DNA from: Atractiella rhizophila | Taxonomy: Eukaryota | DNA length: 57,406 bases | Reading direction: 5' to 3' | Assembly (NCBI GenBank): GCA_021432655.1 | Contig: MU271254.1 | Location: forward strand, 62,001-119,406 | In this document: positions 25,543-57,406 of the stretch, piece after piece | How the letters are laid out: the number at the start of each line of letters is the position of its first letter | Position numbering within the stretch: the first letter of the stretch is position 1 | The notes under the pieces: generated by a model | What the model saw: only the letters and a program-made list of their open reading frames with translations | Database searches by the model: none | Told to the model about the DNA's origin: nothing | Translations under genes and position numbers: made by a program

Positions 25543-26328
25543 ATGGCACAGTCATTCACGGTACCTCCAGCCAAAGCCAGAGGTCCCATAGTTGTATGCG
25601 GCCCTTCAGGCTGCGGCAAATCCACTCTGCTCAAACGACTGTTCGAGGAATTTCCAGATACTTTTGCCTTCTCCGTTTCTCGTCAGTAGATCGCTAAGGT
25701 GCTATTCAGTTGCTGATGCTGTAAATTTAAGACACTACACGGGTTCCTAGACAGGGCGAAGAGGATGGAAAGCACTACCATTTTGTGACGGTCCAGGAGT
25801 TTGAAGATCTAATCGCGGATAATGCGTTCATCGAGCACGCCAACTTCTCAGGTAACAGATATGGGACGACTGTCAAAGCCGTCGAAGCTGTCGAGCTGCA
25901 GGGTAAACGATGTGTGCTCGATATCGATACCCAGGTACCTGCATTACCTCTTTTTTCCATGTCGGTTCTCATACTTTGTCAAGGGCGTGCGAACAATTCA
26001 TGCAATTCACCCACCTCTATCTGCAAGAACCCTCTTCACATTTCTTTCTCCACCTTCCCCTGCTCTCAAAAGCTTGCACTCGCGTCTTTCTGGCCGCGGA
26101 ACAGAATCATCATCCTCCCTTAGGTCGCGATTACTTGCAGCCCAAGGTGAGCTGGAATACGCGGCTCAAGAGGGGAGCTTCGATGTCGTGGTTGTAAATG
26201 ACAATGTCGACGTTGCCTATCAAAAGCTGAGAGCATTAGCAGTGGAAGGAGTGGTCACTGGAGCGGAAGGTGGAGACCCTTTGCCAGACATCTCAAAAGA
26301 GGAGGACATATCCGCACTGTTAGACTAG
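25543..26328 (+). CDS. GUK1: Guanylate kinase
   Basis: P-loop [41 protein letters not shown] and CVLDIDTQG. Confidence 0.95.
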
Positions 26329-26417
26329 GATCTGGTGTAGAACATAGTGAAGCAAATTTCAGCATCTTAAGACTAGGATCTGGTGTAGAACATAGTGAAG
26401 CAAATTTCAGCATCTTA
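26322..26417. repeat. 48-bp exact tandem duplication over the GUK1 stop and 3' UTR
   Basis: AGACTAGG...CAGCATCTTA occurs twice here and once in copy B. Confidence 0.92.
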
Positions 26418-26583
26418 GCTCAGCCGATTGTCACTTTCCTCCCTCCCAGTTACCTATTTCCCACAGATATCCAGCGAGTCCTCCCCATCTACTCGAGCAG
26501 CTGCCAAAGAATAAGCATGACTCAACTGCAAATAGAGTTCATGCGCTCAGTTGTCCAAATGAAACTGGGTCGAAACAACGAAA

Positions 26584-27447
26584 ATGACTAACGATAGAGG
26601 ACGGTCGACGTCTCCAAAGCCGGTAGGAAGGAATTCGCCGGATAGGAGAGGCAGGAGTATCTCGAGGAGTAGGTCCAGGTCAAGGTCCAGGTCCAGGAGT
26701 CCAAGTAGAAAGCGGGCATATTCTGCCAGTCGTAGTCGCTCCAGAAGCCGGTCGTATTCTCCTCGTTCGAAGAGGTAAGACAGAGACAAGGATCTATGGG
26801 TCATATGAGACTGAGGGTCGAATAGGTCGCGAAGCTTGAGTCGCTCAAGGTCCAGGTCCCGCTCCTTCACTCCGCGCAGGAGGACTCGCTCGCTTTCACG
26901 ATCGCGTTCTCGTTCACGATCACGCGAGCGTGGAAGTCCCATTATTGTGGTGTCAAGGCTTACAAAGAACGTTACTCAAGACCATTTGCGAGAGATTTTT
27001 GGGAATTATGGAGACGTCTCTGACATTGACCTTCCGATCGTGCGAAAACGTGGGTATCCGTGTCCGTACCTCTACAAAACAAGCACTGATCTGTGTGAAG
27101 TGGGAACTCATCGTGGTACGGCTTACATCACTTATGCCTCAGCGTCATCCGCTGCAAAAGCTGTCTCGCACATGGATCGTGGGCAGTTGGACGGTTCCTT
27201 GATTTCAGTGTCATTCAAGGCAACGGACCCACCACCTAGGAGAAGGTATGGGAGGAGTCCTTCACCCCCTAGGAACAGACCGTACGCGCGGAGGCCTTCC
27301 CGTTCGAAGTCTCCACCCATCCGCCGTAGTGGCGCTCAAAGGAAGTCGCCCGATTATGGACCTCGAGGCCGCAGCCGGAGTGATGCTTCAATGAAAAGTG
27401 GTAGTAGCTACTCGAGCCGCGGGACCAGCAGGAGTAGGAGCCGCTAG
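26584..27447 (+). CDS. RNPS1: RS-rich RRM protein, RNPS1-like (copy A)
   Basis: RS tracts flank an RRM (IVVSRLTKNVTQDHLREIFGNYG...HRGTAYITY...AVSHMDRGQLDG); two introns. Confidence 0.8.
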
Positions 27448-27550
27448 CCGAAGAGACAGTGTCAGCCTCAAACTTGTGACTCTACTCCAGTTTTTGTAAC
27501 ACAGTTTTAATCCTTCAATTCATGCATGATCACTTTCAAAGTACAACACT

Positions 27551-28934
27551 TCATACAACCGGAACAACCGATCTAGAAGATCTGGTCAGCCGTGGCCCTC
27601 TAGTTCATCCGACTGACCTCGTGTCCCATACAACAAGACGTCCGTCCACCCCACTGGTACTGACCTGGGCAACAGCTTCCCTGGTTCCAGAGTAAAATTT
27701 CACCGCTGTAATCGTGTTCTGATGTGTTGTGGCCAATGCGGTCTCCTCAGGCGCAGCATACATATTAGCTCCTCTGCTGTCTGCGCTCTTGAACAGGTTG
27801 AAAGCTTCGTTATTCAGCCTTCCGGCTGCAGCAGTACGCGCTCCACCACTCTTGGATTGGTTCACATCCAAAGTCCCCGCCAAAGTCCAAGTGTAATTCG
27901 CGTCGGCTTGGAACAAATATGGCTGACAGTCATGACCGGCACCAACAAGAGACGTCTCTGTCACGAAAACAAGAGACAAGACGGGCAATGAGTGTAGGTC
28001 GACCACTTGAACGCCACCACCAGCGTAAGCAATCGAGATGGTGGAGTCGTGACCTGGTGAAAATGTTCAGTCAGCAGTTCCGCGATTGAAATGAACGGTT
28101 ACCAGTGAATGCAAGAGCTTCGCCACTGGGCGAGAAAGCTACCCCATGGACCCAACCGCCAGATGGGGTCGAATATTCCGCGCAAAGGGTATGGAAGGGC
28201 AATTTATCTCCCCAGTTTGTAGGAGCTGGCCTGTATGATGTCAACTACCACTCGTGCACACAAATGAGCAACAGACTTCTGATCTGATCCTTTCAAGAAA
28301 GCGGAAAATACCCTCGCTTTCGAATCTGCGCTAGCAGTAGCGAGCAGGATCGAGTTGGGATGCCAATCCAAAGCTAACACGGTACTCCTGATGGGTTTCT
28401 TGATGTGCCTAGCGACCCACCAATCGTTTTCCGTATCGTACTGGCATACCGCTACGGTGCGGGCGCCCGAAGCGACTGCGAACTTCTCCTCGTTAGGAGA
28501 CCACTGAACATAGGTAGCCGAGCGGTTGAGACGGAGCAAGACAAGGGATGGAGACCATTTTTGTTGGCCAGTAGCCGGGTCGACAACGGGATTCCAAACA
28601 TAAGCATTTCGATCCTGGGAGCAAGTCACAATGCGATTGGTATGCGGAGCCCAGTCCACAGAGGTGATAAGTTTGTCATGCTGCGGGACCGTTGATTAAA
28701 TCGTGTCCAATCATTATGTGGCAGTACGCACTTCGGTTAAGGTATCGGCAAGAGTCCAACCGTTACCAGACTTTCTATGGATCTGCAACTCATCTGAATT
28801 GCTGCTTATAGCGACCACTGTCCAGTCCGGTGAGCAAGTCCAGCGGCTGAGGATAACAGAAAATCGAACGCACTGGAATGATCGGCGTTGAAGGCATGAG
28901 TCGTTAAGGGACTAAAGGAGAATTGGTGTTCCAT
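27551..28934 (-). CDS. ARPC1: Arp2/3 complex 41 kDa WD40 subunit (copy A)
   Basis: [49 protein letters not shown] and HQNTIT...STSGVDG. Confidence 0.94.
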
Positions 28935-29170
28935 GATGAGACGTTTCAATGGAGCGGATTAGCAATCTACACTCCTTATAAGCTCCTTTGGTTGAAGTGT
29001 TTGCAGCTAACTCGTGAGCGGACGGGACAGGGCGCTTCCGCTAGTCTTGTGCACGTACCTCTGGCGCCGTATGTTATCGACTTTGAAGCTTGAAAGACGC
29101 GGTGACGATAGGGAGGAGCTTAGAATCGCTTCATAGACGAGCTACTCAGCGTACTCGCCGCTAAGACAAG

Positions 29171-29872
29171 ATGGGGATTCAAGGCTTATTGCCCATGCTC
29201 AAGGCATGCTCTTCCTAACCAGTGCATGGTATTTGACTGCCAAATAGGAAGCGCAAAATCCGGATCACGTTAAGAATTACAAAGGAAAGACTCTTGGAAT
29301 TGATGCTTATGTCTGGCTTCACCGAGGAGCCTACGCATACGCCCAGTCGATAGCATTAGGCGAATCGAACACTCGTTACATTAACTACGCCATTCACAGG
29401 ATCCGCATGTTACAACACTACGGAGGTGAGTAACCTAGATTGAGCAGACGGACAAAGGTGATCAGACCACGTAGTGACGCCTTACGTTGTTTTTGATGGT
29501 GGACTCTTGTCGGCTAAGAAAGCTACTGAGAGCGATCGAGATCGGTCAGTCTTGGAAGTTGCAGTGTCACATTGCTCATTTTCGGACAGGCGACGCAAAG
29601 AAGCACTCGCTGCCGGGAAGAAGGCACTCCAAGAGGGCAAAAAGAGTTTAGCACGAGACTATTTCATCAAAGCTGTAGACGTCACTCCTGCCATGGCTTT
29701 TCAACTTATCAAGGTGACAAAGTGCCTGCCCACACCTGATTAAGCCGACATTGATCTACAGGCGCTCCGTAAAGACAACATTCGATACGTTGTGGCACCT
29801 TTCGAGGCTGATGGTAAGTGGCTCGTGCTGCAGGTTTATACACGTACAGATAGTAGGATTCAGCTCAGCTCG
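29171..29872 (+). pseudogene. EXO1: 5' fragment of exonuclease 1, truncated by the duplication junction
   Basis: MGIQGLLPMLK...GIDAYVWLHRG...VFDG...APFEADAQL, then an abrupt switch to GUK1 3'-end sequence. Confidence 0.88.
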
Positions 29873-30100
29873 ATATCCGCACTGTTAGACTAGGATCTGG
29901 TGTAGAACATAGTGAAGCAAATTTCAGCATCTTAGCTCAGCCGATTGTCACTTTCCTCCCTCCCAGTTACCTATTTCCCACAGATATCCAGCGAGTCCTC
30001 CCCATCTACTCGAGCAGCTGCCAAAGAATAAGCATGACTCAACTGCAAATAGAGTTCATGCGCTCAGTTGTCCAAATGAAACTGGGTCGAAACAACGAAA

Positions 30101-30959
30101 ATGACTAACGATAGAGGACGGTCGACGTCTCCAAAGCCGGTAGGAAGGAATTCGCCGGATAGGAGAGGCAGGAGTATCTCGAGGAGTAGGTCCAGGTCAA
30201 GGTCCAGGTCCAGGAGTCCAAGTAGAAAGCGGGCATATTCTGCCAGTCGTAGTCGCTCCAGAAGCCGGTCGTATTCTCCTCGTTCGAAGAGGTAAGACAG
30301 AGGGATCTATGTGTCATATGAGGCTGAAGGTCGAATAGGTCGCGAAGCTTGAGTCGCTCAAGGTCCAGGTCCCGCTCCTTCACTCCACGCAGGAGGACTC
30401 GCTCTCTTTCACGATCGCGTTCTCGTTCACGATCACGCGAGCGCGGAAGTCCAATTATTGTGGTATCAAGGCTTACAAAGAACGTTACTCAAGACCATTT
30501 GCGAGAGATTTTTGGGAATTATGGAGACGTCTCTGACATTGACCTTCCCATCGTGCGGAAACGTGTGTATCTGTGTTCGTGGGTCGACAGACAAGCACTG
30601 ATTTGTGTGAAGTGGGAACTCATCGTGGTACGGCTTACATCACTTATGCCTCAGCGTCATCCGCAGCGAAAGCTGTCTCGCACATGGATCGTGGGCAGTT
30701 GGACGGTTCCTTGATTTCAGTGTCATTCAAGACAACGGACCCACCACCTAGGAGAAGGTATGGGAGGAGTCCTTCACCCGCTAGGAACAGGCCGTACGCG
30801 CGGAGGCCTTCCCGTTCGAAGTCTCCACCTATCCGCCGTAGTGGCGCTCAACGGAAGTCGCCCGATTATGGACCTCGAGGCCGCAGCCGGAGTGATGCTT
30901 CAATGAAAAGTGTTAGTAGCTACTCGAACCGCGGGAGGAGCAGGAGTAGGAGCCGCTAG
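30101..30959 (+). CDS. RNPS1: RS-rich RRM protein, RNPS1-like (copy B)
   Basis: Same exon structure as copy A, with a few amino-acid changes. Confidence 0.8.
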
Positions 30960-31063
30960 CCGAAGAGACAGTGTCAGCCTCAAACTTGTGACTCTACTCC
31001 AGTTTTTGTAACACAGTTTTAATCCTTCAAATTCATGCATGATCACTCTCAAAGTACAACACT

Positions 31064-32446
31064 TCATACAACCGGAACAACCGATCTAGAAGATCTGGTC
31101 AGCCGTGGCCCTCTGGTTCATCCGACTGACCTCGTGTCCCATACAACAAGACGTCCGTCCACCCCACTAGTACTGACCTGGGCAACAGCTTCCCTGGTTC
31201 CAGAGTAAAATTTCACGGCTGTAATCGTGTTCTGATGTGTCGTGGCCAATGCGGTCTCCTCAGGCGCAGCATACATATTAGCTCCTCTGCTGTCTGCGCT
31301 CTTGAACAGGTTGAAAGCTTCGTTGTTCAGCCTTCCAGCTGCAGCAGTACGCGCTCCACCACTCTTGGATTGGTTGACGTCCAAAGTCCCCGCCAAAGTC
31401 CAAGTGTAATTCGCGTCGGCTTGGAACAAATATGGCTGACAGTCATGACCAGCACCAACAAGAGACGTCTCTGTCACGAAAACAAGAGACAAGACGGGCA
31501 ATGAGTGTAGTTCGACCACTTGAACGCCACCACCAGCGTAAGCGATCGAGATGGTGGAGTCGTGACCTGGTGAAATGTTCAGTCAGCAGTTCCGCGGTTG
31601 AAGTGAAAGGCTACCAGTGAACGCAAGAGCTTCGCCACTGGGCGAGAAAGCTACCCCATGGACCCAACCGCCAGATGGGGTCGAATATTCCGCGCAAAGG
31701 GTATGGAAGGGCAATTTATCTCCCCAGTTTGTAGGAGCTGGCCTGTATGATGTCAACTACCACTCGTGCACACAAATGAGCAACAGACTTCTGATCTGAT
31801 CCTTTCAAGAAAGCGGAAAATACCCTCGCTTTCGAATCTGCGCTAGCAGTAGCGAGCAGGATCGAGTTGGGATGCCAATCCAAAGCTAACACGGTACTCC
31901 TGATAGGTTTCTTGATGTGCCTAGCGACCCACCAATCGTTTTCCGTATCGTACTGGCATACCGCTACGGTGCGGGCGCCCGAAGCGACTGCGAACTTCTC
32001 CTCGTTAGGAGACCACTGAACATAGGTAGCCGAGCGGTTGAGACGGAGCAAGACAAGGGATGGAGACCATTTTTGTTGGCCAGTAGCCGGGTCGACAACG
32101 GGATTCCAAACATAAGCATTTCGATCCTGGGAGCAAGTCACAATGCGATTGGTATGCGGAGCCCAGTCCACAGAGGTGATAAGTTTGTCATGCTGCGGGA
32201 CCGTTGATTAAATCGTGTCCAATCATTATGTGGCAGTACGCACTTCGGTTAAGGTATCGGCAAGAGTCCAACCGTTACCAGACTTTCTATGGATCTGCAA
32301 CTCATCTGAATTGCTGCTTATAGCGACCACTGTCCAGTCCGGTGAGCAAGTCCAGCGGCTGAGGATAACAGAAAATCGAACGCACTGGAACGATCGGCGT
32401 TGAACGCATGAGTCGTTAAAGGACTAAAGGAGAATTGGTGTTCCAT
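31064..32446 (-). CDS. ARPC1: Arp2/3 complex 41 kDa WD40 subunit (copy B)
   Basis: ORFs 31716-32171 and 31118-31519 are essentially identical to copy A. Confidence 0.94.
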
Positions 32447-32682
32447 GATGAGACGTTTCAATGGAGCGGATTAGCAATCTACACTCCTTATAAGCTCCTT
32501 TGGTTGAAGTGTTCGCAGCTAACTCGTGAGCGGACGGGACAGGGCGCTTCCGCTAGTCTTGTGCACGTACCTCTGGCGCCGTATGTTATCGACTTTGAAG
32601 CTTGAAAGACGCGGTGACGATAGGGAGGAGCTTAGAAGCGCTTCATAGACGAGCTGCTCAGCGTGCTCGCCGCTAATACAAG

Positions 32683-34915
32683 ATGGGGATTCAAGGCTTA
32701 TTGCCCATGCTCAAGGCATGCTCTTCCTAACCAGTGCATGGTATTTGACTGCCAAATAGGAAGCGCAAAATCCGGATCACGTTAAGAATTACAAAGGAAA
32801 GACTCTTGGAATTGATGCTTATGTCTGGCTTCACCGAGGAGCCTACGCATACGCCCAGTCGATAGCATTAGGCGAATCGAACACTCGGTACATTAACTAC
32901 GCCATTCACAGGATCCGCATGTTACAACACTACGGAGGTGAGTAACCTAGATTGAGCAGACGGACAAAGGTGATCAGACCACGTAGTGACGCCTTACGTT
33001 GTTTTTGATGGTGGACTCTTGTCGGCTAAGAAAGCTACTGAGAGCGATCGAGATCGGTCAGTCTTGGATGTTGCAGGGGTGCATTGCTAATTTTCGGACA
33101 GGCGGCGCAAAGAAGCACTCGCTGCCGGAAAGAAGGCACTCCAAGAGGGCAAAAAGAGCTTAGCACGAGACCATTTCATCAAAGCTGTAGACGTCACTCC
33201 TGCCATGGCTTTTCAACTTATCAAGGTGACAAAGTGCCTGCCCACACCTGATTAAGCCGACATTGATCTACAGGCGCTCCGTAAAGACAACATTCGATAC
33301 GTTGTGGCACCTTTCGAGGCTGATGGTAAGTGGCTCGTGCTGCAGGTTTATACACGTACAGATAGTAGGATTCAGCTCAGCTCGCCTTTCTGGAGAAGGA
33401 GGGATTGTGCGATGGAATCATTACGGAAGATTCGGACCTCCTCGTCTATGGATGCAATCTGGTACTATTCAAAATGGACAACTTCGGCAACTGTGTCTCA
33501 ATCGCTCGAGCAGACTTTGCACGATGTACCACAGTGGACATGCACAGCTGGTCAAACAAAGAGTTCAGGCATATGGCCATTCTTTCCGGTTGCGACTATC
33601 TTCCGTCAATAAAAGGGATAGGACTGAAAACTGCTGCGAAATTATTGAAAAAACATAGGACAGTGGAGCAGGTTAGTTGCTCCCTATCAAACGAAGTTCG
33701 CCCATTGATGAAGCCTCCAGATAATCGACTCACTTCATCGGCAGGGATTCGGAAATCTCATCCAGGACTATCTGCCGAAATTTCGACGAGCTGATTTTAC
33801 ATTTCTTCATCAGCGCGTTTTTGATCCTGCTTCGAAGAAACTCGTCCACCTCAATCCCTTACCACCACACATTGACGCTTCTTATCTGGAATACACTGGC
33901 AACGAGCTTCCACAAGACATCGCGCTTGCGATAGCCGTCGGAGATCTTGACCCGATCAATCTGAAGCCATTTATTGATTTTGAACGCGGCGACGGACAAA
34001 AGCATCAATCTAGTTCTAAAACACTATTGAGCTACTTTTCAAATATGGCAACCCCCAAAGTGACACGCCCTCGAGAAGGTACAAAACGCTTGAAGAAACT
34101 AGACGCTAACAGTCCTACTGGGCCTGTTGTTGCGTCTAATGCCCAGACAACAACTAGCAAATATTTCAAGACTCCCATTCCGCCTGGACGAAAACAAACA
34201 ATTCAAGCTACAGTAGTCCTGAACGCGACCGAAACTTCATTGATGAATACCGTTGTGGACAAAGCGACCGATGGACTGGAGAAAGAAGAGTCGAAATGGA
34301 TCCTAGAGGAGAGCGTGGAAAAGGAAACTGTAGCATTTGAGCAGGAGAATGCGCGTCTAGAAGAAGATCTCAGTGAGCGCGAAATATCTATCAGTCCGTT
34401 TCGTCCTCCACACCGCACGTCACCAGCAAATTCCGATAACATCACTGACCCTGATGTCTCATCACCTTCAACGCCAACAGCCAAGCGAAAACGAGCACAC
34501 CGGACTGTTAGTCCCACCGATTTCATTAACAGTCCCACTGCATCCCAGCCCTTGAAACGTCGCAAGATTCTGTGTGACGGCTCAGGCGAGACGTCTGCCG
34601 ACAACATTTCGTCCCCAATCCTCGAAGAACGATCTTCACTTGTTGACCAGTCACGAACTGCTGTAGCAAGAGGCTGGCGAGAAAAATTTATCGCTCCGAT
34701 GTCCTCCAAGGTACTTATGAACTGATCGGGAATACAGTGCAAGGGCTGACAGAATGTAGGTACGCAAGGTAGCTCTTCAACCAACAACGCAACTGGCCAC
34801 TCCAACTCTCAGTCGAATCAACAATAAGACGCGGAGGAACGACAGTACCATCAAGATGTCTACCCGTCCGATGGTCAGACCACTAGATCTGGAAATTTTT
34901 CGCCATCCTGCATGA
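32683..34915 (+). CDS. EXO1: Exonuclease 1 (XPG/FEN1 family), full length
   Basis: XPG-N and XPG-I motifs EADAQLAFLE, IITEDSDLLVYG, ILSGCDYLPSIKGIGLKTA and FLHQRVFDP; long disordered C-terminus. Confidence 0.94.
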
Positions 34916-42399: not shown

Positions 42400-43018
42400 A
42401 GGCAGTGCTACATTATGTACAGTCGCTGGTGGTTGATGTGTCTGTAGTTGAGATGAACCTGAGTATGAAATATAACAAGATACTAACCTGTAGAGGAGAT
42501 GAACCTAAGAGAATACTCTAAGGTTATTATTTCATGATTTATATATAAGTGCAAGGCACTGCCATAAATTGTAAAGAGGGTTGCATAAAACATGGAGGAT
42601 GACTAAATCAAGTAATGGATATAATCAGGAATAAGTTATAAGGGGAGGAACAGCATGAAACGAGAACAAGAAAGATGCAAAGTGGTGCTGAATCTGCAGA
42701 GTGGCAAACTGCACTGGAGGATTCAGGGCAGCAAACTGCATAGGAGGATGTAAGGCAGCGAATAGCTCAGTGCTGACCAGCAAAATGGGAAGAAGGTCAC
42801 ATGACCCAGATGAGTGTCAGAGTTTGGCAGCGTTTTAAGCTACATTTGTGCCACTGTCATTTGTGGCTCTAGTTTTCTTTCCCCTTTGCCGTTTCTCTCA
42901 TTTTGCCGAGTTCCTCAAGGTATAAAACGCCCACTATAACTTCATTGTAATGTATTCCTTTAGACCCTTGGAATCAACAATGAGTACATTTCAGTAATTC
43001 GTGAGAGCAAGCCTGACA
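42400..43018 (-). mobile_element. Degenerate solo LTR of the gypsy family, interrupted by a 165-bp insertion
   Basis: Aligns with 52881-53299 and 43609-44013 (actaacctgtag...gagaatactct; end gcaagcctgaca). Left end eroded. Confidence 0.8.
42815..42979. mobile_element. 165-bp TG...CA element (short solo LTR) with ATGAG target-site duplication
   Basis: ATGAG|TGTCAGAG...AATCAACA|ATGAG. Removing it restores collinearity with the LTR at 43609-44013. TATAAAA near 42921. Confidence 0.85.
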
Positions 43019-43608: not shown

Positions 43609-44013
43609 TGTTAGGGCTGACACTATGTACTGTCACAAACCAGTGATGTGTCTGTATTAGAGATAAACCTAAGAATATCATAACATGAAGTGACTAACCT
43701 GTAATGGGGATAAGCCAAAGAGAATACTCTAATGTCATCACCACTACATCACAATTTATATATATGTGTGTAAGGGCAACAAAGATATGCTAAGAAGAGC
43801 AATACAAAGGGATGTCAAGACAAAAACTGTGATGGTGCAGACTGGCGAATTCAATGGGATTTACTGAGCTCTGACCTGTACATTGAGACACAATGCGGCA
43901 GAGAGTGTGGCAGGTGCAAAGTGGTGCTTGGTAAGAGCATGAACTTGTGAAGTAGGAAAGTAGGTCATGTGACCTAACTTAGTGCATTTCAGTAATGTGT
44001 GGGAAGCCTGACA
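43609..44013 (-). mobile_element. Solo LTR of the gypsy family (405 bp)
   Basis: TGTTAGGGCTGACAC...AGCCTGACA termini; 5-bp TSD CATGG/CGTGG (4 of 5 match). Confidence 0.9.
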
Positions 44014-44781: not shown

Positions 44782-45040
44782 TGTCAGGGCTGACATTCTG
44801 TAAGTAGAGGCTGCCAAGTAGAGTGGATATCCTGGGTATTATTATAATGATAGAAGAGAGATACTAACCTGCCAAGTAGAGTGGATATCACAAGAGTATT
44901 TATATACAGACAGCCACAAGTCCAGAATGTTCCAGCATATTCCACTGTTAACTCTATTTGCCACATGCCCAACAGAACCTTTTAGACCATTTGTTATATA
45001 TTCCAGAACATGAGTCATGCTTCAGAAGTGAACCCTAACA
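44782..45040 (-). mobile_element. Solo LTR of a second family (259 bp)
   Basis: TGTCAGGGCTGACA...CCCTAACA with perfect TSD TCAGA. It shares only the terminal ~14 bp with the main gypsy LTR. Confidence 0.9.
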
Positions 45041-45220: not shown

Positions 45221-45563
45221 AATTGAGCTCATGAGCTCAAACAATAACAAAACTATAAAGGAATGGCATATCTCAGTTGGACCTGGACAAGAATCATTCA
45301 TACTCTCACCCATACTATCCTCTGAACTATGCTCCTTCTCCTGGACCTCAACCTCATCATCCATCCGATTGACAGCTCATGGGTTCCCATTCCCTCGAAT
45401 GCGCGATACCATTGTTTTAGTCCTTGTCATTGCTCCTTATGTGGTATAGGCATCCTTTGTTGTTGTCATTCCATCACTGCCATTAGTGAAGGTGTTTGTG
45501 TTAGGGCTGACACTGCCTGTCAAAGCAGCGAAAAAGAAAGCCAAGGGCGACAATGACTCTTAG

Positions 45564-49200: not shown

Positions 49201-50564
49201 GAGCGCCGAAGTCATGAGCTGCTTTAAAGCGGCGAACGAACGTCGTTCGTCTACCCCCCAGACCCAGGAAATCTCCTTTTTGGTCAGTTCGTATAAAGGT
49301 CTTGCAATGTGACTAATTCTGTCGCAAAAACGGCAATAGAAATTAGCGAAACCAAGGAACATTTGGACTTCCTTCATGTTTTTTGGTTCCGGCCAATCCA
49401 TCACTCCTGCAACCTTTACTGGATCCGGTTCGATCCCTCTGCTGGTAATGATCAATCCTAGATACTCTACTTCACTTTGACACCAGACACATTTCTGTAA
49501 GTTAACATAAAGCCCATTTTCGCGCAAAATTTGACAAACTTGTCGAACGTGTTCCCAGTGTTCTTCTTCAGTTTCTGTCGCAATTAGGAAGTCGTCTATG
49601 TATATGAAGATGAACGCGGCGGCGATCATAGCGCGGAAAATAGAGTTCAGGAAAGCTTGGAAAGTCGCCGGTGAGTTGCAGAGTCCGAAATACATTACCA
49701 ATGGTTCGAAAAGTCCTCAATTTGTGCGAAACGCAGATTTGTGTTCGTCTCCCTCTTTGATACGGACGTTGTTGAACCCTTTCCTCAGATCAATCTTGCT
49801 GAAAAACTTCTTACCAGAAACCATGGAAAAGAGGTCAGCTTGAATGGGGAGTGGGGTCTTGTCTTTGACTGTGGCTTCGTTCAGCTTTCGATAATCGAAA
49901 AGGGGACGAAGTTCGGAGGAGTCTTTTTTGTGCGTGAAAAAAACAGAAGCTCCATGTTCACCTGTGCTAGGACGTATACGACCGGCGCTTAGTTCGGCGT
50001 CAATGAATTGGTCGAGCGCCGCTTGTTCGTCTCTTTTCAAGGGGTAGACCGGGCCCGCATATGGTCGTGATTCGGGTATGAGGTTGATCACGTGATCCCA
50101 AGGACGTCGGGGAGGAAGAGAAGTTTTGAACTTTTCGTCGTCGAAAATGTCCGCAAAATCGGCGATTTGCGTTGGTATTTCGACGACATTTTTTGGTCTC
50201 ATCGCCGCTGCGTCTTTTGCCAGTTTCTGCGATTTTGTCATAGCGGCTCGTATCGAGGTCGACGATGGCGGGAAGTGTTCGCGAGTGGTAGACACGTCAT
50301 CTGCATTGCAACTGGTAGGGCAACGAGAGAACTCAACTTTCCCTGAGTCCCAGTTGATCTCTGGGTTATGGTGTCTTAGCCAGTCATGGCCCAGAATCAT
50401 GTCGACAGTCCCTAAGTCTGCTACAGCGAATTGCCAAACCTCGTGGTGAGCGGCGATCGAAATGGGCAAGTAAGTGGCAGAATGGATGGATCCACCTTGA
50501 TTAAGAGATCCGTCGATGTTATAAACAGGTACTGGGGAAGGAAGTTGAGTGACAGGTAGGTTGT

Positions 50565-51171
50565 TGTCAGGTTTGGATCTTACGCAAATCGGCGCCCGTT
50601 CGCCGGATTGCGTCTCCTATCGCCCCATTTGCGTTCCGTGCGAATCGGCGCCCGTCGCCACTGCGTCTCCCGTCGCCACTGCGTCTCCCGTCGCCACTGC
50701 GTCTCCGTCGTCACTGCGTCTCCCGTCGCCACTACTCGGTCACTGCGTCTCCCGTCGCCACTGCGTCTCCCGTCGCCACACTGCGTCTCCCGTCGCCACT
50801 GCGTCTCCGTCGCCACTCGCGTCTCCCGTCGCCTATTTGCACGCAGTGCAAATCGGCGCCCGTTCGCCCATTTGCGCCTACATCACCACTTAGCCCAATT
50901 GTGCCTATCCTCCTCTTATTAACTCCGCGTAATCCCACTGTCACTTCCCCTTCTAGTTCTCTTACATGTTTCATCTGCTCTCCTCTACGCTCTGTGGCAG
51001 TGTTATTCCGCTTGTATATTATAGATCAGAGAGTAGTGGAGGTGACCTCAGAGTATTCTCTTAGGTTTATCTCCACTACAGGTTAGTCTTCATGTCATAT
51101 CATGCTCTTAGGTTTATCTCCACTACAGACGCATCGCCCGTCGGCGACCGCACATAGTGTCAGCCCTAACA
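50565..51171 (+). mobile_element. Solo LTR of the same gypsy family (607 bp), inserted in inverted orientation in the protease ORF
   Basis: GTTGT|TGTCAGG...AGCCCTAACA|GTTGT perfect TSD. Excision restores ...VSAYN-LPVTQLPSPVPVYNIDGS in frame. Confidence 0.95.
50650..50833. repeat. ~18-bp GC-rich minisatellite (CCCGTCGCCACTGCGTCT)n in the LTR U3
   Basis: About 9-10 variable units, bracketed by the direct repeat GCAAATCGGCGCCCGTTCGCC. Confidence 0.9.
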
Positions 51172-51486
51172 GTTGTATGCAGAAACGAGTTTTGGAGAAA
51201 TAAAAGAAGTAGTTGCGCCGCTGTCAACGAGCGCCGACGTGGCGTGCCGGCGATGGGAATGTGGATGGTGGAATGCGGTTCTGAGCTTCGTCTTCGAACT
51301 GACAAGAGATGCTGTTGTCGAGCGTAAGTGGACTTTGTCGTACATTTTTGCGACTTCTGCGCATCTTTGCCTCCAGGAGGGAAAACGCAATTTCGGGAAT
51401 GGGGAGTCTTGTTCAGATGGGGGGAATACTATGCTGGGCGGCATCTTGTTGGAAGTGATTTTTGATGACGTAAATGAATTGCAAGT

Positions 51487-51531
51487 CGGCGATGGGGACA
51501 CTTCTTCCACCCACCGCCGTCCTAAAAATCC
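51487..51531 (-). promoter_or_regulatory. Putative -1 ribosomal frameshift signal at the gag/pol junction
   Basis: G GAT TTT TAG at the gag end; pol is in the -1 frame; 10-bp stem CGGCGGTGGG/CCCATCGCCG 5 nt downstream. Confidence 0.75.
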
Positions 51532-52839
51532 TCCTCAAGATCTTTTGATTGGGTAACACTCGTTTTCGGTGACTGGTCGGCGAATTGTCCAATTTGTCGT
51601 TCTTGGTGCATCATTTTTGAATCAAAATATTCCCCTTGAGCTCGGAGATATTGCTCTTTGTTCATAGTCGTTCTACATTCTCTCTCCCGATGTCCTATCT
51701 TTTTGGCATCGTCTGCAACGGGGAGGTCTAGATTTTGTCGCATCGACTTCCATGTCATCGGGGTCCTTGGCTCTATGAGCGTGTATAGCGGCGTTTGGTG
51801 ACGGATTGGCGACCGGTGACAAAGTGGCGCTCGGTCGATACGGTACGGATGTTCTGCTCTCTCTGTGCTTTGATGATTTTGAGCTGTCTCTCTTGGCAGA
51901 AAACGTATTTTGGGATCCATCTTTTGCCGATAGGATGTTTCGAAAGAAGGTTGAATGAGCAGATTCTTCAGCGTCAATTCGCCGAGATTTTTCTTTCCAG
52001 TCTTCCAGCGATTTTGGGAACTCTCCTTGGGTTACTTTGAGATGTAGGGCAGGATTGAGTCCTCGTTTGAAGAAAAAATGAGGGCTTCATCATCAAAGTC
52101 AGCTTGATTTGCCAATTCTTCAAACTTGATGGTGTAGGTTTCTAGGTTACCTTTTTGCTGGAGGGAAGATATTTTTGTCTGTGCAATGAGCTTGTGGTCT
52201 GTCTTGCAGAAACGCGCTCTGAACTCTGACAAAAATTGTTCCCACGAAATTCGTTCCTCGTTTTCAACAAGTCGGCGCAAAATCCCAGCGGCGAATTTTT
52301 CCGCATCTCCTTCTTTCATGTAAGAAAGGGTAAATAGGATTTTCGATTTTTCGGTCGGGAATTGGCCTGGAACGGTAGAGGTGTAGACGTAAATTTCACG
52401 TAAAAATGTCGGAGCTGTTTTAGGCGCTCCTTTGAAGATTGAAGGTGGAGCGAGCTTGATACCTGCATACGGTGCTACTTGGGCAGTCTGGGATATAGCT
52501 GGAGGAGAATAAGTTTGAGGTATTGGGTCTGTTCGCGATAAGAAAGGAGAGGTGGTTCCACTGTCTCTAGGAGGGGGCAGTCTGGAGTCCAATAATTGCA
52601 AAATTCGGTCGTTTGTGTTTTGGACGTGGACGTCGAACCTCAGTTGCGCAATTTCGTTCGCATTCTGGGAGGTTTGCACATTTTGTTGGTTGAAGCTCGT
52701 TATGAGGTCTTGTTCGAGTTTTTTTGAATTGCTTTTCAGTTGTGAGGTGTAGAGTTTGGAACATCCTTTCTAGGTGCTGGATGCGTTCTTCGCTCGTCGG
52801 CGGTTCGCGCGTTTCCATATCTCCCCAAACCTCCGACAT
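51522..52839 (-). pseudogene. Gypsy gag (frameshifted in this sequence)
   Basis: KLAPPSIFKG...FPTEKSKILFTLSYMKEGDAEKFA...WEQFLSEFRARF (retrotransposon gag), with a remnant zinc knuckle near the C-terminus; ends EEDF-stop. Confidence 0.88.
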
Positions 52840-52868
52840 TTTTTAAGTTTGGTTTTGAAAATAAGGGG

Positions 52869-52878
52869 AGAGTATTCT
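52869..52878 (-). promoter_or_regulatory. Self-priming primer-binding site (AGAATACTCT)
   Basis: 2 nt inside the 5' LTR end; exactly complementary to LTR 53004-52995, which lies about 27 nt downstream of TATATATA. Confidence 0.75.
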
Positions 52879-52880
52879 TC

Positions 52881-53299
52881 TGTTAGGGCTGACACTATGT
52901 GCGGTCGCCGACGGGCAACGCGTCTGTAGTGGAGGTAAACCTAAGAGAATAGCATGGCATGAGGAGACTAACCTGTAGTGGAGGTAAACCTAAGAGAATA
53001 CTCTGAGGTCACCACCACTACATCTCGATGTATATATACATATGTAAGGGCACTGCCATAAACTGTAACATACGTTTCTTGAAACATGTAAGATAGCTAG
53101 ATCAGGAAAGCAACAAAGGGAATACTCGGAAATAAGGCATACTGAGCAGTACAAGTGAGAAAGGACAATAAAGTAATAATAGAGACGGTGCAGACCGGCG
53201 AAATGTGCAAGGTTTGCTGAGCGGCGATTCGTGTGAGATAGGGAAAGCGGCGATCAGCGCGAACGTGAGCAAAGCGGCGATGGGGAGGCACGTGACCTG
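52881..53299 (-). mobile_element. 5' LTR of the gypsy element (outer ~40 bp of U3 missing)
   Basis: Same U5/R as 50565-51171; TATA at 53031-53038. Confidence 0.9.
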
Positions 53300-53691
53300 T
53301 GGTGGAGATAAACCTAAAGAGAATACTCCAAGGTCATCGCCACTACATCTTGGTTTATATAATGTGTAGGGTATTATTAGCATGAAATATAAAGTATGTT
53401 GTATGAAACATGTGTCATAGCTAAATCAGGAAGGTAATAAAGGAAATAGTTAGAAGTAAGTTATGGAAAGAGGAATAATATGAAAGGATGGTAAGATGAA
53501 ACAACAGTAATGTAGACCAGCAAAATGAACGGGTGTACTGAGCGGTGAACTGCATGTGAAGACACAAAGCGGCAAAGAGTATGGGAAGGGGCAAAGTGGT
53601 GAGTGATAAAAGCACTGATTAGTGAATTAGGAAAGCAAGTCACATGACCTGAACAAAAGCATTTTGGTAATGTGTAGGAGCAAGCCTATCA
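53295..53691 (-). mobile_element. Older partial LTR of the same family (R/U3 only), fused to the 5' LTR
   Basis: acctgtggtggagataaacctaaagagaatactcc...gagcaagcctatca aligns to the other copies. Confidence 0.8.
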
Positions 53692-55230: not shown

Positions 55231-55438
55231 TGTTAGTTGTAGTGTGTTGTTTTGGTCATCTGCCTGTTATGACTCGTATGAGTCATCACTATACCTATAG
55301 TTTAGTTCTGCCTAGGAGTGTTGGTGCTCATTATTGACCACCAACCACTCCCCAGGTATGTGTCTCTATACTTCTCTAATATCTCATTATTGACCACCAA
55401 CCACTCCTAGCCTTAGATCCTTACATGGTAGCAAGAGC
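55231..55438 (+). mobile_element. 5' LTR (55231-55425) plus tRNA-type PBS of a copia-like element A
   Basis: TGTTAG...CCTTACA followed directly by TGGTAGCAAGAGC. Sequence similarity to the LTR at 55534-55738. Confidence 0.72.
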
Positions 55439-55533
55439 TGGTGGCTAAGATTACATTTGGTCACACCTATCACCTAACCCCTCCTCCAGACCACAATTTT
55501 CACCCTCCCACACTCAAATTTGAGAGAATCTGA

Positions 55534-55738
55534 TGCTGGATGGAGCTAGGGGACAGAGATTGGTGGTCAAAGATGATGACATTGATAGGAAAACACATAC
55601 CTAGGGGACAGAGATTGGTGGTCCAGGATGATGACCGCCTAAACTGCCCCCTAGGGGGCTAAAACTCCGAAGTGAAGCAAACAACACTGAGGTGGCTGAC
55701 CATACAAATATAACAGAAATATAACACCTAATCCAACA
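55534..55738 (-). mobile_element. 3' LTR of copia element B (205 bp)
   Basis: Minus strand: purine tract AGGTGGGAG, then TGTTGG...CCAGCA; lies downstream of the RNase H ORF. Confidence 0.8.
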
Positions 55739-55965
55739 CTCCCACCTGGGCAGCCGCCTCTTGAAGCTCCCACTAAATCCGAGAACCATCCAGAATAACC
55801 ATCCAATGAATCTCCCACCGAATGAAGGCATCATGAAGTGACATCGCACAAAGAAAACATATTAGTTAAATGTCTAAAACCAGTAGAGAGATCCTCGTAC
55901 CGCTTAAAGCGGCGTCTTATAACCCCTAGAAGGAGGACAGAGTTTTATTGTGCCCCATAACTGCC

Positions 55966-57406
55966 TCATACACTTGGGTAGGGGCGCAGACCCATCATTT
56001 CTCGGAATTTTGCAACGCCAGCAACTGGGAAGGCCTTGGTGAGGAGGTCTGCAGGCATAGACTCGCCAGGGCAGAAGGCTGGGGTGATGAGTCCAGATTT
56101 CTACTGTGTCCCTGAGCCAGTAGAAGCGAAGATCCAAGTGCTTCATGCGTCCATGGTGCTCAGGATTCTTGCTGACTTGCAAAGTGCTGTTGCTGTCCGT
56201 ATAAAGTGTTGTCGAACCTTTTGGAGCGAAGCCAATCTCTTGCAGAAGACTTCTGAGCCAAACCACCTCTTGTCCTGCTGATACCCCTGAGATGTACTCA
56301 GCCTCCGTGGTTGAGAGTGCCACAAGAGACTGCAACTTGCTACTCCAGCTCACTGCTCCTCCTCCGACAGAGGTATCCTCCAGTAGACCGGCCAGTATCC
56401 TTGCAACCCGCAAAGTCCGCATCACAATATGCCTTGAATGGTTGAGAGATATCAAAATCTGAGGCAGAGTACTCGATGCACATGTCCTGAGTGCCCTTGA
56501 GATAGCGCATGAGGTGTTTGGCAGCTTCCCAGTGCCTCTTGCCAGGATTGGACAGGAATTTTCCGGGACAGAGACAGTGTGTGCAATGTCAGGGCGTGTA
56601 GCAACTGCAAGGTACATGAGAGAGCCGACGACATGGCTGTAGGAAATGGTTCGCATCTGTTCTTCATCTTCCTTGGTCTGAGGACAGTCTTGCCTCGATA
56701 AACCGTGGCCAACACTGAGGGGAGTGAGCACAGGCTTGCAGCTATCCATCTTCTGTCGAAAGAGAAGGTCCTTAACGTATTGCTCCTGATCCAACCACAT
56801 CTTCTTCTGCTTCCTATCCCGCCTAATCCTCACTCCAAGCAAAAATTCCGTCGCTCCAAGGTCCCTCAGCTTGAATCTCTTTCCTAACTCCTTCTTGAAC
56901 TCCTCCACAGCGCGTCTGGACGTGCTTGCAATCGTTATATCGTCCACAAAGACTGGGACAATCACCTTGACTTCACCATTCGAGTAGATCCAGAGACTGC
57001 TGTCACACTTGACTTTGGTGAAGCCCATGGACACGAGCTCCCTGTCCAGTTTCTTCTGCCATTGACGTCCTCCTTGCCTGGTGCCATAGATTGCTTTGAG
57101 GAGTTTGAGAGCGTATTCTGGAGGACCTTGAGGGTGACCTTCTGGCTGCTTGGCATAGACTTCAGCGTCCATTTCTCCGTTCAAAAACGCAGTTGAGATG
57201 TCCACTGATTCCAGTTCCATGTCCAGGACACAGGCAAGCGAAAGAATGGTTCTGAGAGTGGCCCATTTGACTGTGGAAGCAAAGGTGTCGAAGAAGTCAA
57301 AGCCAGGACGTTGAGAGAAGCCCTTGATGACGAATCTAGCCTTATAACGCTCAATTGAGCCATCAGACTTCTTCTTGATAGCAAACACCCATCTGGATCC
57401 AATGAC
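55966..57406 (-). pseudogene. Ty1/copia pol 3' part (RT plus RNase H), frameshifted, runs off the window
   Basis: RYKARFVIKGFSQ, VDISTAFLNG, KAIYGTRQ, FVDD, TRPDIA, VALSTTEAEY, KHLDLRFYW and ADLLTK (shifted frame). Confidence 0.95.

Follow-up and report, generated by a model that had tools for sequence, protein, structure and literature searches.

A hairpin over the presumed U3/R boundary of LTRs in Atractiella rhizophila and its possible role beside a putative LTR intron

LTR copies and the putative intron inside them

The DNA analysed here (the window) is a stretch of 57,406 nt from contig MU271254.1 of the Atractiella rhizophila assembly GCA_021432655.1 (positions 62,001-119,406, forward strand), and all coordinates below are counted within it. 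Between 42 and 54 kb, the window holds one gypsy LTR in five diverged copies sharing about 70-84% identity. The LTRs that enter the argument, and the coding region of the gypsy element, are as follows.

50915-51171, plus strand: gypsy LTR copy 51k
53136-52881, minus strand: gypsy LTR copy 53.0k, a 5' LTR, followed on the minus strand by a Retrotrans_gag ORF
53460-53295, minus strand: gypsy LTR 53.3k, a partial internal duplicate (duplicated promoter segment of the 53.0k LTR)
43778-43609, minus strand: older gypsy LTR copy 43.7k
42610-42410, minus strand: gypsy LTR copy 42.5k, the most diverged
50616-47121, minus strand: gypsy pol domains RVT_1, RT_RNaseH_2 (7.1e-30), rve, SH3_Tf2-1 (2.4e-09) and Chromo (7.2e-09)
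44782-45040, minus strand: solo LTR 44.8k, with the 5-bp target duplication TCTGA
55232-55427, plus strand: 5' LTR of copia A
55546-55655, minus strand: 3' LTR module of copia B, a copia element with RVT_2 (6.7e-52)

The ORFs of the gypsy element are split across several frames, and the element downstream of the LTR at 53136-52881 is, to judge from its domains, a Ty3/gypsy chromovirus with broken reading frames. A DIRS-like element with inverted terminal repeats, to which the inverted orientation of the 51k and 53k LTR copies might point, was set aside, as the pol has an integrase and the LTRs are separate. The gypsy LTR family clearly appears as many repeats among the contigs of one sequencing run, from which 2536 contig pieces aligned to positions 50900-53480 at a likeness of at least 80%; when the contigs of four sequencing runs were compared with the same interval, 212 letter differences were recorded.

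In the 51k LTR, a 24-nt word (X1) stands directly before a candidate splice donor and returns a short distance downstream (X2), at the end of what may be an intron. The same arrangement is found in the 53.0k LTR.

51058-51081, plus strand: X1 of the 51k LTR, the word CTCTTAGGTTTATCTCCACTACAG, with its CAG end directly before the donor GTTAGT
51082-51128, plus strand: putative 47-nt intron of the 51k LTR, starting with GTTAGT and closing with X2 (51105-51128), which has a CAG end
51129-51171, plus strand: segment past X2 that contains a GC hairpin as well as the conserved LTR end GTGTCAGCCCTAACA
52924-52972, minus strand: putative 49-nt intron of the 53.0k LTR, with X2 at 52951-52924

In the 51k copy X2 starts 47 nt downstream of the start of X1, the two words being identical at 24 of 24 positions, and in the 53.0k copy they match over 28 of 28. 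The donor (CAG/GTTAGT) lies inside the LTR, 32 nt past the predicted start of the RNA and about 90 nt before the LTR end. A strict scan for this layout, demanding a 16-mer before GTNNGT that recurs with an AG end 15-110 nt downstream, returned five matches in the window versus none in 20 shuffled windows. The matches are three gypsy copies, the 44.8k solo LTR and the 3' LTR of copia B, with donors GTTAGT or GTATGT, acceptors CAG or TAG and intron lengths of 46-58 nt; in the gypsy copies the X1-X2 interval takes the intron form at 46-49 nt. A crude ORF-joining scan of host genes gave candidate introns of 46-120 nt with the donors GTTAGT, GTAAGT and GTGAGT. By its boundaries, its consensus donor and its host-like length, the X1-X2 interval fits the form of a spliceosomal intron, and we refer to it as the putative intron. 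The layout itself, i.e. X1, then GT(T/A)(A/T)GT, then X2 ending in AG, is, as read from the DNA, common to at least four LTR families. Among the 12 joints listed from the comparison of contigs with positions 50900-53480, none jumps 47 or 49 nt from X1 to X2, and such contigs cannot show absence.

The two words carry a record of their history. Both X words of the 53.0k copy have the substitution TTTAC and both words of the 42.5k copy have GGTTCA, and in the older gypsy copies X1 and X2 decay independently. The identity of the words in young copies, taken together with the shared lineage-specific substitutions, suggests that X1 and X2 evolve in concert.

The gypsy hairpin and the predicted start of the RNA

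X1 is at the same time the right arm of a hairpin whose left arm reaches back towards the TATA box. The features of this region in the gypsy copies, including the primer-binding site (PBS) that follows the 53.0k LTR, are listed here.

51015-51023, plus strand: TATA box TATATTATA of the 51k LTR, beginning 35 nt before AGAGTATTCT
51033-51049, plus strand: left (anti-X) arm, which takes up the interval from the TATA box to the predicted start; presumed U3
51050-51059, plus strand: AGAGTATTCT, inner stem and TATT loop; predicted RNA 5' end and self-primer
52973-53038, minus strand: module of the 53.0k LTR, with the TATA box at 53038-53031, left arm at 53022-53005, self-primer at 53004-52995 and X1 at 53000-52973
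53300-53347, minus strand: third hairpin copy, in 53.3k, with no intron or X2 downstream
43701-43747, minus strand: fourth hairpin copy, in 43.7k
42442-42525, minus strand: module of the 42.5k LTR, where the inner stem alone remains; X1 ends at 42488 and X2 at 42442
52869-52878, minus strand: PBS AGAATACTCT, starting two bases past the LTR end (52881)

An earlier note, made from the letters of the window, had placed a hairpin at 51033-51081 with X1 as its right arm, and its pairings can be read directly in the sequence. The outer stem is formed by GTAGTGGAG (51033-51041), the reverse complement of CTCCACTAC (51071-51079), and the inner pairs are ACCT (51045-48) with AGGT (51063-66) and AGAG (51050-53) with CTCT (51058-61), around a TATT loop; the right arm is indeed the word at 51058-51081 whose exact copy lies at 51105-51128. 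The structure is imperfect and about 48 nt long, or about 60 nt when an outer helix of 3-4 bp is counted, and the stem stops 2 nt short of the donor. Folded as RNA, 57 nt of the 51k LTR reach -28.9 kcal/mol against a shuffle mean of -13.6 (z -5.77, with 0/200 shuffles as good). The note had also located hairpins at 52974-53022 and near 53298-53348, and both are recovered: the 53.0k copy (53022-52974, minus) folds at -28.2 kcal/mol (z -5.10, 0/200 shuffles) and the 53.3k copy (53347-53300, minus) at -20.2 kcal/mol (z -2.84, 1/200). The fourth copy, in 43.7k (43747-43701, minus; -18.2 kcal/mol, z -2.53, 1/200), was absent from the note's list, and the 42.5k LTR gives z -1.32, with 22/200 shuffles as good.

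The pairing was also assessed by a duplex test, in which X1 was set against its own 60 upstream bases and the energy was compared with 500 shuffles and 1000 random genomic 60-mers. None of either control reached the observed energy for the 51k and 53.0k copies (0/500 and 0/1000 each); the corresponding counts are 2/500 and 15/1000 for 53.3k, 1/500 and 37/1000 for 43.7k, and 59/500 and 526/1000 for 42.5k. The hairpin of the gypsy family is solidly beyond chance, and it counts once, because all gypsy copies descend from one ancestor. An Rfam search of the whole window gave 0 matches. A spliced-leader RNA gene was set aside on this ground and because the word lies within LTRs that bear target duplications beside gag-pol. 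A hairpin serving as a Dicer substrate is possible, but an element is unlikely to retain one across three families.

The start of the RNA can be placed at the hairpin loop on the strength of the TATA spacing and of the complementarity between the PBS and AGAGTATTCT. The TATA box begins 28-35 nt upstream of AGAGTATTCT in all five gypsy copies, in which GAGTATTCTC is likewise invariant (5/5). The PBS AGAATACTCT is the reverse complement of AGAGTATTCT (53004-52995) over 10 nt, a match with a single occurrence in the LTR, and a 10-nt complement was reached by six of 5000 shuffles of the 20 bases that follow the gypsy 5' LTR. The stretch after the 53.0k LTR has no TGG start, unlike a tRNA-type site. 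When the leader is folded from AGAG onwards, the minimum-energy fold joins the 5' end with the PBS and, enclosing a GC stem-loop, brings CACUA in X together with UAGUG in U5. In self-priming of the Tf1 type, RNase H cleaves the duplex between the 5' end and the PBS, giving a primer of about 11 nt. The gypsy element looks self-primed in this Tf1-like manner, and its RNA probably begins at about 51050, i.e. in the hairpin loop. In the gypsy copies the X repeat would then start at nt 5-11 of the RNA.

The outer stem, together with the 3-4 bp outer helix proposed by RNAalifold, lies 5-22 nt past the TATA box. As the outer arm lies in the spacer between the TATA box and the start, the outer stem of 9-10 bp would form only in RNA that reads through the LTR, i.e. 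in its 3' copy, provided that the start is TATA-directed. The claim of the earlier note that the left arm lies mostly upstream of the start is supported for the gypsy LTR, by the TATA spacing in 5/5 copies and the 10-nt PBS complement, whereas the starts of copia A and copia B are unanchored.

The same palindrome might instead be an ordinary element of the R region or of the promoter, either a TAR-like hairpin that forms at each end of the RNA, the start being upstream of it, or a palindrome in the DNA to which a dimeric factor binds at the initiator. It is centred on the predicted start, the arm of a copia LTR could be downstream of the start, and stem-loops in R are frequent among retroelements. 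However, both arms of a TAR-type hairpin are downstream of the start, and the left arm of the gypsy LTR takes up the stretch from the TATA box to the self-primer; the extended gypsy arm starts about 5 nt past the TATA box, too near for a TATA-directed start upstream of it. Moreover, a 5'-terminal hairpin would bury the self-primer, and a palindrome of 48-60 nt with G.U pairs, bulges and unrelated sequence in three families is unlike a protein-binding site. We regard an ordinary R or promoter element as very unlikely.

Copia LTRs, covariation and the accessibility of X1

The comparison extends to two copia LTRs and the 44.8k solo LTR, with the following features.

55308-55410, plus strand: copia A module, its X1/X2 layout having CCAG and TAG ends, with the arm at 55315-55326, an extension of the arm at 55308-55313 and X1 at 55327-55355
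55356-55410, plus strand: putative 55-nt intron of copia A, holding X2 (55383-55410)
from 55428, plus strand: tRNA-type PBS of copia A, TGGTAGCAAGAGC, starting with TGG
55546-55655, minus strand: copia B module, with the arm at 55655-55644, X1 at 55635-55601 and a putative 55-nt intron at 55600-55546 that contains X2
44889-44869, minus strand: X1 of the 44.8k solo LTR, followed by GTTAGT and by X2 at 44831-44811, with no significant anti-X arm

The PBS of copia A is presumably of the initiator-tRNA type; no tRNA genes were found in the window. The layout of X1 and X2 is present both in the self-primed type of LTR (gypsy) and in the tRNA-type one (copia A), which suggests that its role is independent of the mode of priming. 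The copia A hairpin folds at -26.8 kcal/mol (z -4.32, 0/200 shuffles) and that of copia B at -34.0 kcal/mol (z -4.05, 1/200 shuffles). In the duplex test, copia A was equalled by 4/500 shuffles and 49/1000 genomic 60-mers, and copia B by 24/500 and 52/1000, so against random genomic 60-mers the copia hairpins are marginal and as a pair they stand moderately beyond chance. The extension of the copia A stem pairs the donor bases AGGUA, and the copia B stem reaches donor G+1. The earlier note had seen the same design in the copia LTRs: the layout and the arms it gave are present there, with moderate support for the arm. It had also called the inverted match in the LTR at 44782 weaker, and this match proves no better than chance (hairpin z +0.95, with 165/200 shuffles as good; duplex test 185/500 shuffles and 267/1000 genomic 60-mers). 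The 44.8k solo LTR keeps the layout while lacking the arm, which the layout therefore does not require.

Two properties of the copia A LTR bear on how an arm could act. The minimum-energy fold of its 3'-type RNA joins the arm with X2, not X1. Since X1 equals X2, the arm can pair with either, and it tells X1 from X2 only by distance and order of synthesis. The copia A arm begins 27-34 nt past a TATA-like motif and could therefore lie inside the transcript.

Covariation, which the earlier note had put forward as a check on the hairpin, was assessed on the five gypsy copies from the window. In their alignment, 86% of cells pair, a figure that falls to 43-54% if the partner is shifted by 1-3 columns. 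Two of 20 pairs are changed on both sides, a number reached by 40/500 shuffles, and the covariation score is reached by 216/500. Covariation is weak and not significant overall, as only five copies were available; one compensatory path can be followed at columns 21/50, where three copies have A-U, one has G.U and one has G-C, the C of the last pair being found also in the X2 of the same copy. RNAalifold, run on three gypsy copies, proposes an outer helix of GAGA/UCUC and GUGA/UCAC, weaker in 51k, which leaves the donor AGGUUA bulged and has two pairs changed on both sides (anecdotal at n=3). In four of the six LTRs the sense strand gives a better fold than the antisense strand, and in the other two the strands are equal.

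These data bear directly on the possibility that the arm has no function of its own, being a neutral inverted duplication or a by-product of reverse transcription that gypsy copies share by descent and the copia LTRs have by coincidence. The lack of significant covariation and the common ancestry of the gypsy copies are compatible with it, as are the marginal copia signals against genomic controls and the existence of the X1/X2 layout without the outer arm in both 42.5k and 44.8k. Against it, the geometry of arm, short loop, X1 and donor recurs in three unrelated sequences, with z no higher than -4 in each, folding favours the sense strand in 4/6 LTRs, and there is the A-U to G.U to G-C path. 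We consider a functionless arm unlikely.

To see what the arm would do to its surroundings, we computed the ensemble cost of forcing a segment open in RNA that begins at the predicted start (5' context) and in RNA that begins 60 nt upstream (3' context). The costs, in kcal/mol and from the 5' to the 3' context, are the following.

Gypsy 51k: X1 from 4.7 to 17.0; 9-nt donor site from 2.0 to 2.5
Gypsy 53.0k: X1 from 8.2 to 19.5; 9-nt donor site from 4.0 to 6.4
Gypsy 43.7k: X1 from 7.4 to 10.8; donor from 2.8 to 3.5 (site window off by one base)
Copia A: X1 from 4.5 to 7.2; 9-nt donor site from 5.8 to 5.2
Copia B: X1 from 9.4 to 15.7; 9-nt donor site from 3.7 to 6.0

The U3 arm thus raises the cost of opening X1 by up to about 12 kcal/mol, and that of opening the donor by 0.5 to 2.4 kcal/mol, or lowers it by 0.6 in copia A. 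As the cost rises strongly for X1 and by at most 2.4 kcal/mol for the donor, the structure acts, in thermodynamic terms, on X1 rather than on the donor. That the arm would hide X1, as the earlier note proposed, is borne out in silico, most strongly in 51k and 53.0k. The note's further suggestion that the stem abuts the donor and blocks it fares less evenly: the stem does end 2 nt before the donor, but the computed opening cost of the latter changes by only -0.6 to +2.4 kcal/mol.

The same calculation weighs on two other explanations. One is that the hairpin sequesters AGAGUAUUCU in the 3' LTR, leaving only its 5'-terminal copy to pair with the PBS and be cut by RNase H. The self-primer does coincide with the inner stem and loop of the hairpin, and by computation the 5' context leaves it free and the 3' context buries it. 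Masking of the self-primer, however, leaves X2 unexplained, as well as the hairpin of copia A, an element that looks tRNA-primed from the TGG at the start of its PBS TGGTAGCAAGAGC, and we find it distinctly improbable.

The other explanation is discrimination between RNA ends of the kind known from foamy viruses, where U1 snRNP bound to the donor would suppress 3' end formation at the 5' LTR, and the U3 arm would refold the 3' LTR so that the donor goes unrecognised and polyadenylation follows, or the 3' intron stays unspliced. The same logic has been shown for a donor located in R, where the fold is altered by 13 nt of U3 (PMC3694450). The stem ends 2 nt from the donor in the gypsy LTR, includes AGGUA in copia A and extends to G+1 in copia B, and in three gypsy copies the outer helix encloses AGGUUA as a bulge. 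On the other hand, the opening cost of the 9-nt U1 site changes by only +0.5, +2.4 and +0.7 kcal/mol in the gypsy copies, +2.4 in copia B and -0.6 in copia A. No poly(A) signal was recognised downstream of the donor, in particular in the 43 nt (gypsy) or 17 nt (copia A) that lie between X2 and the LTR end, and suppression of polyadenylation by U1 has, to our knowledge, not been established in fungi. We judge such foamy-type discrimination to be unlikely as an account of these LTRs.

A possible mechanism and its place among known systems

Retroelements normally lose introns when spliced RNA is copied, and their LTRs, though identical, have to play different parts at either end of a single RNA. 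The reading that we tentatively favour, knowing that it may well prove wrong, is that the hairpin at the U3/R boundary clamps X1 only in the 3' RNA and thereby biases strand transfer to X2. The 5' arm of the hairpin would correspond to the spacer between the TATA box and the start, and the loop and 3' arm to the first ~30 nt of the transcript, made up of the self-primer AGAGTATTCT and X1. Since the outer arm would not be transcribed from the 5' LTR, the hairpin could form only where the LTR undergoes read-through, which is at the genomic RNA's 3' end, and two RNA copies of the same LTR sequence could in this way behave differently. At the 5' end, X1 would be free to pair with U5 and the PBS, and the donor would be usable; at the 3' end, the copy of X1 would be locked by the clamp.

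On reverse transcription of the spliced RNA, the strong-stop DNA would end with the complement of X. Landing on X1 of the 3' LTR, it would give rise to new LTRs without the intron. Landing on X2 and the sequence that follows, it would be extended through the intron, X1 and U3, the intron would be back in both LTRs, and X2 would be rewritten from the parental X1. The clamp on the 3' X1 would shift the choice towards the unclamped X2, and the rewriting would account for the concerted evolution of X1 and X2 and for the start of the repeat by nt 11 of the predicted RNA. Such steering requires a poly(A) site beyond X2. The RNA start, the splicing of the intron, this poly(A) site and every step of strand transfer are parts of the scheme that we infer. 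The mechanism as set out in the earlier note is plausible, coherent, partly supported and unproven. A wider version, in which gypsy and copia LTRs carry a convergent, self-regenerating spliceosomal intron, with X2 restoring the intron and the anti-X arm in U3 enforcing the choice, seems to us rather doubtful.

The symmetry of the LTRs is broken in a simple manner if a U3 arm enters the RNA at the 3' end alone. We know of an experimental demonstration of this so far only in foamy viruses, for the choice of poly(A) site. In the window the same trick would be found beside a putative mini-intron with a duplicated exon end, in unrelated LTR families of one genome. If the mechanism is true, it explains how LTR elements keep an intron in the 5' leader, which would be useful in hosts with introns that boost expression, and it gives a testable role to the interval from the TATA box to the start of the RNA; in its wider version, it would constitute a general, convergently evolved route for keeping an intron through reverse transcription. 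Even if the model fails, the hairpin aids annotation by marking the U3/R boundary and the self-primer.

Searches for relatives added little. The 11 loci returned by a metagenome scan with the conserved 18-nt LTR end were set aside as chance matches, being alike over 18-21 nt with the rest of the LTR unmatched. Among viral contigs, a protein search with RT/RNase H gave three pattern matches and no relative, and a 33-nt X1 pattern gave 0 matches; a 24-nt pattern gave 0 matches among prokaryote genome contigs. In a partly cursory survey of the literature, no paper was found on an intron inside an LTR or on intron regeneration by strand transfer, nor on an exon-end duplicate at the 3' end of an LTR intron or a U3 arm directed against such a word.

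Among retroviruses, the TAR and poly(A) hairpins of HIV-1 are stable stem-loops at the start of R that affect 3' end formation and strand transfer. Hairpins of this kind lie wholly in R and form at both RNA ends, whereas the one in the gypsy LTR has one arm upstream of the predicted start. The RexRE of HTLV-1, which bridges the poly(A) signal in U3, belongs to the same group (summarised in PMC3694450).

The closest precedent, by analogy, is the U3-dependent refolding around the splice donor of foamy viruses. Mutants and SHAPE showed there that U3-dependent refolding around the major splice donor in R governs poly(A) choice via U1 snRNP (Schrom et al. 2013, PMC3694450). In both systems the donor sits inside the LTR past the start, and thus at both RNA ends, and a few U3 nucleotides before +1, present in the 3' copy only, alter the local fold so that the copies are treated differently, which in our case is a prediction. 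The two differ in that the computed effect in A. rhizophila concerns the exon word X1 rather than the donor, and in that the donor here heads a complete putative LTR intron of 46-58 nt, which closes with a duplicate of the exon end.

In its priming, the gypsy element resembles Tf1, Tf2 and Tj1, in which self-priming is recognised by a PBS that complements the 5' end of the element itself (PMC4600332, PMC5341516). The likeness includes a pol of the chromovirus type, a PBS just behind the 5' LTR with complementarity to the first bases of the transcript, and a predicted duplex between the 5' end and the PBS with a U5 stem-loop; the complementarity spans 10 nt in the gypsy element, whose RNA 5' end is predicted. 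In the passages on Tf1 and Tj1 that were consulted, no LTR intron, X1/X2 duplication or U3 anti-primer arm was found described (PMC4600332, PMC5341516). U3-dependent refolding of a donor is known from foamy viruses and self-priming from Tf1 and its relatives, and the literature survey gave no precedent for the putative LTR intron with a duplicated exon end and an anti-X arm in U3.

Duplication and variation in the gypsy-family LTRs

Within the 5' LTR of the minus-strand element of the gypsy family (diverged Ty3/gypsy chromovirus LTR copies), about 325 bp are duplicated (53460-53295 versus 53136-52971), and the duplicated unit repeats the promoter, the hairpin and X1, the word that forms the right arm of the hairpin and precedes the GT donor. 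The first unit (53460-53295) ends exactly at the CAG of X1 and is joined there to GTCACGTG of U3. Sixteen contigs of a sequencing run, itself designated X1 and distinct from the word, diverge from the window at 53294/53295, and the duplication junction is thus probably specific to this copy. Over 50900-53480, most of the differences that contigs of this run show from the window are transitions (A>G 43, C>T 40, G>A 38 and T>C 37, with all transversions together amounting to 35).

Just upstream of the core of the plus-strand LTR, GC-rich tandem repeats with a CGTCTCCCGTCGCCACTG-like unit of about 18 nt occupy positions 50560-50833; none of the other gypsy-family LTR copies in the window has these repeats, which possibly constitute a part of the U3 of the plus-strand LTR. 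Elsewhere in the window, about 3.5 kb are duplicated in tandem (26370-29872 and 29887-33384, 97.9% identity), with an exact 48-bp tandem repeat (26322-26417) at the left edge.

Solo LTR and other LTR arrangements

44782-45040, minus strand: solo LTR, 259 bp, target duplication TCTGA
55904-57406, minus strand: copia B RT

The termini of the solo LTR, TGTTAGGG...GCCCTGACA, are similar to those of the gypsy family, and a third, partial copy of the shared word X (CCTCTACTTACAG) directly follows X2, the repeat of X1 that ends in AG. A further LTR terminus, TGTTAGGGCTGACAC / GTGTCAGCCCTAACA, occurs at 45499. No promoter, hairpin or X module can be recognised beside it, and it may represent the decayed 3' LTR end of the minus-strand element.

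The stretch 55232-55737 holds two LTRs in head-to-head orientation, the plus-strand 5' LTR of copia A, with its PBS, and the minus-strand 3' LTR of copia B. The copia B arm belongs to the perfect palindrome CCCCCTAGGGGG (12 nt, 55658-55647).

Pairing partners of X and a self-priming signature

Besides the U3 arm, i.e. the left arm of the hairpin, U5 (51129-51171 and the other copies) is also complementary to X, with CACUA predicted to pair with UAGUG, and UUAGG with CCUAA at the LTR end. Because X is complementary to both, the U3 arm partly mimics the U5/PBS side.

In the minus-strand gypsy element, the 10 nt located two bases past the 5' LTR (52869-52878, minus strand) correspond to the reverse complement of 52995-53004, a word at the putative RNA start. 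This complementarity is a self-priming signature like that of Tf1.
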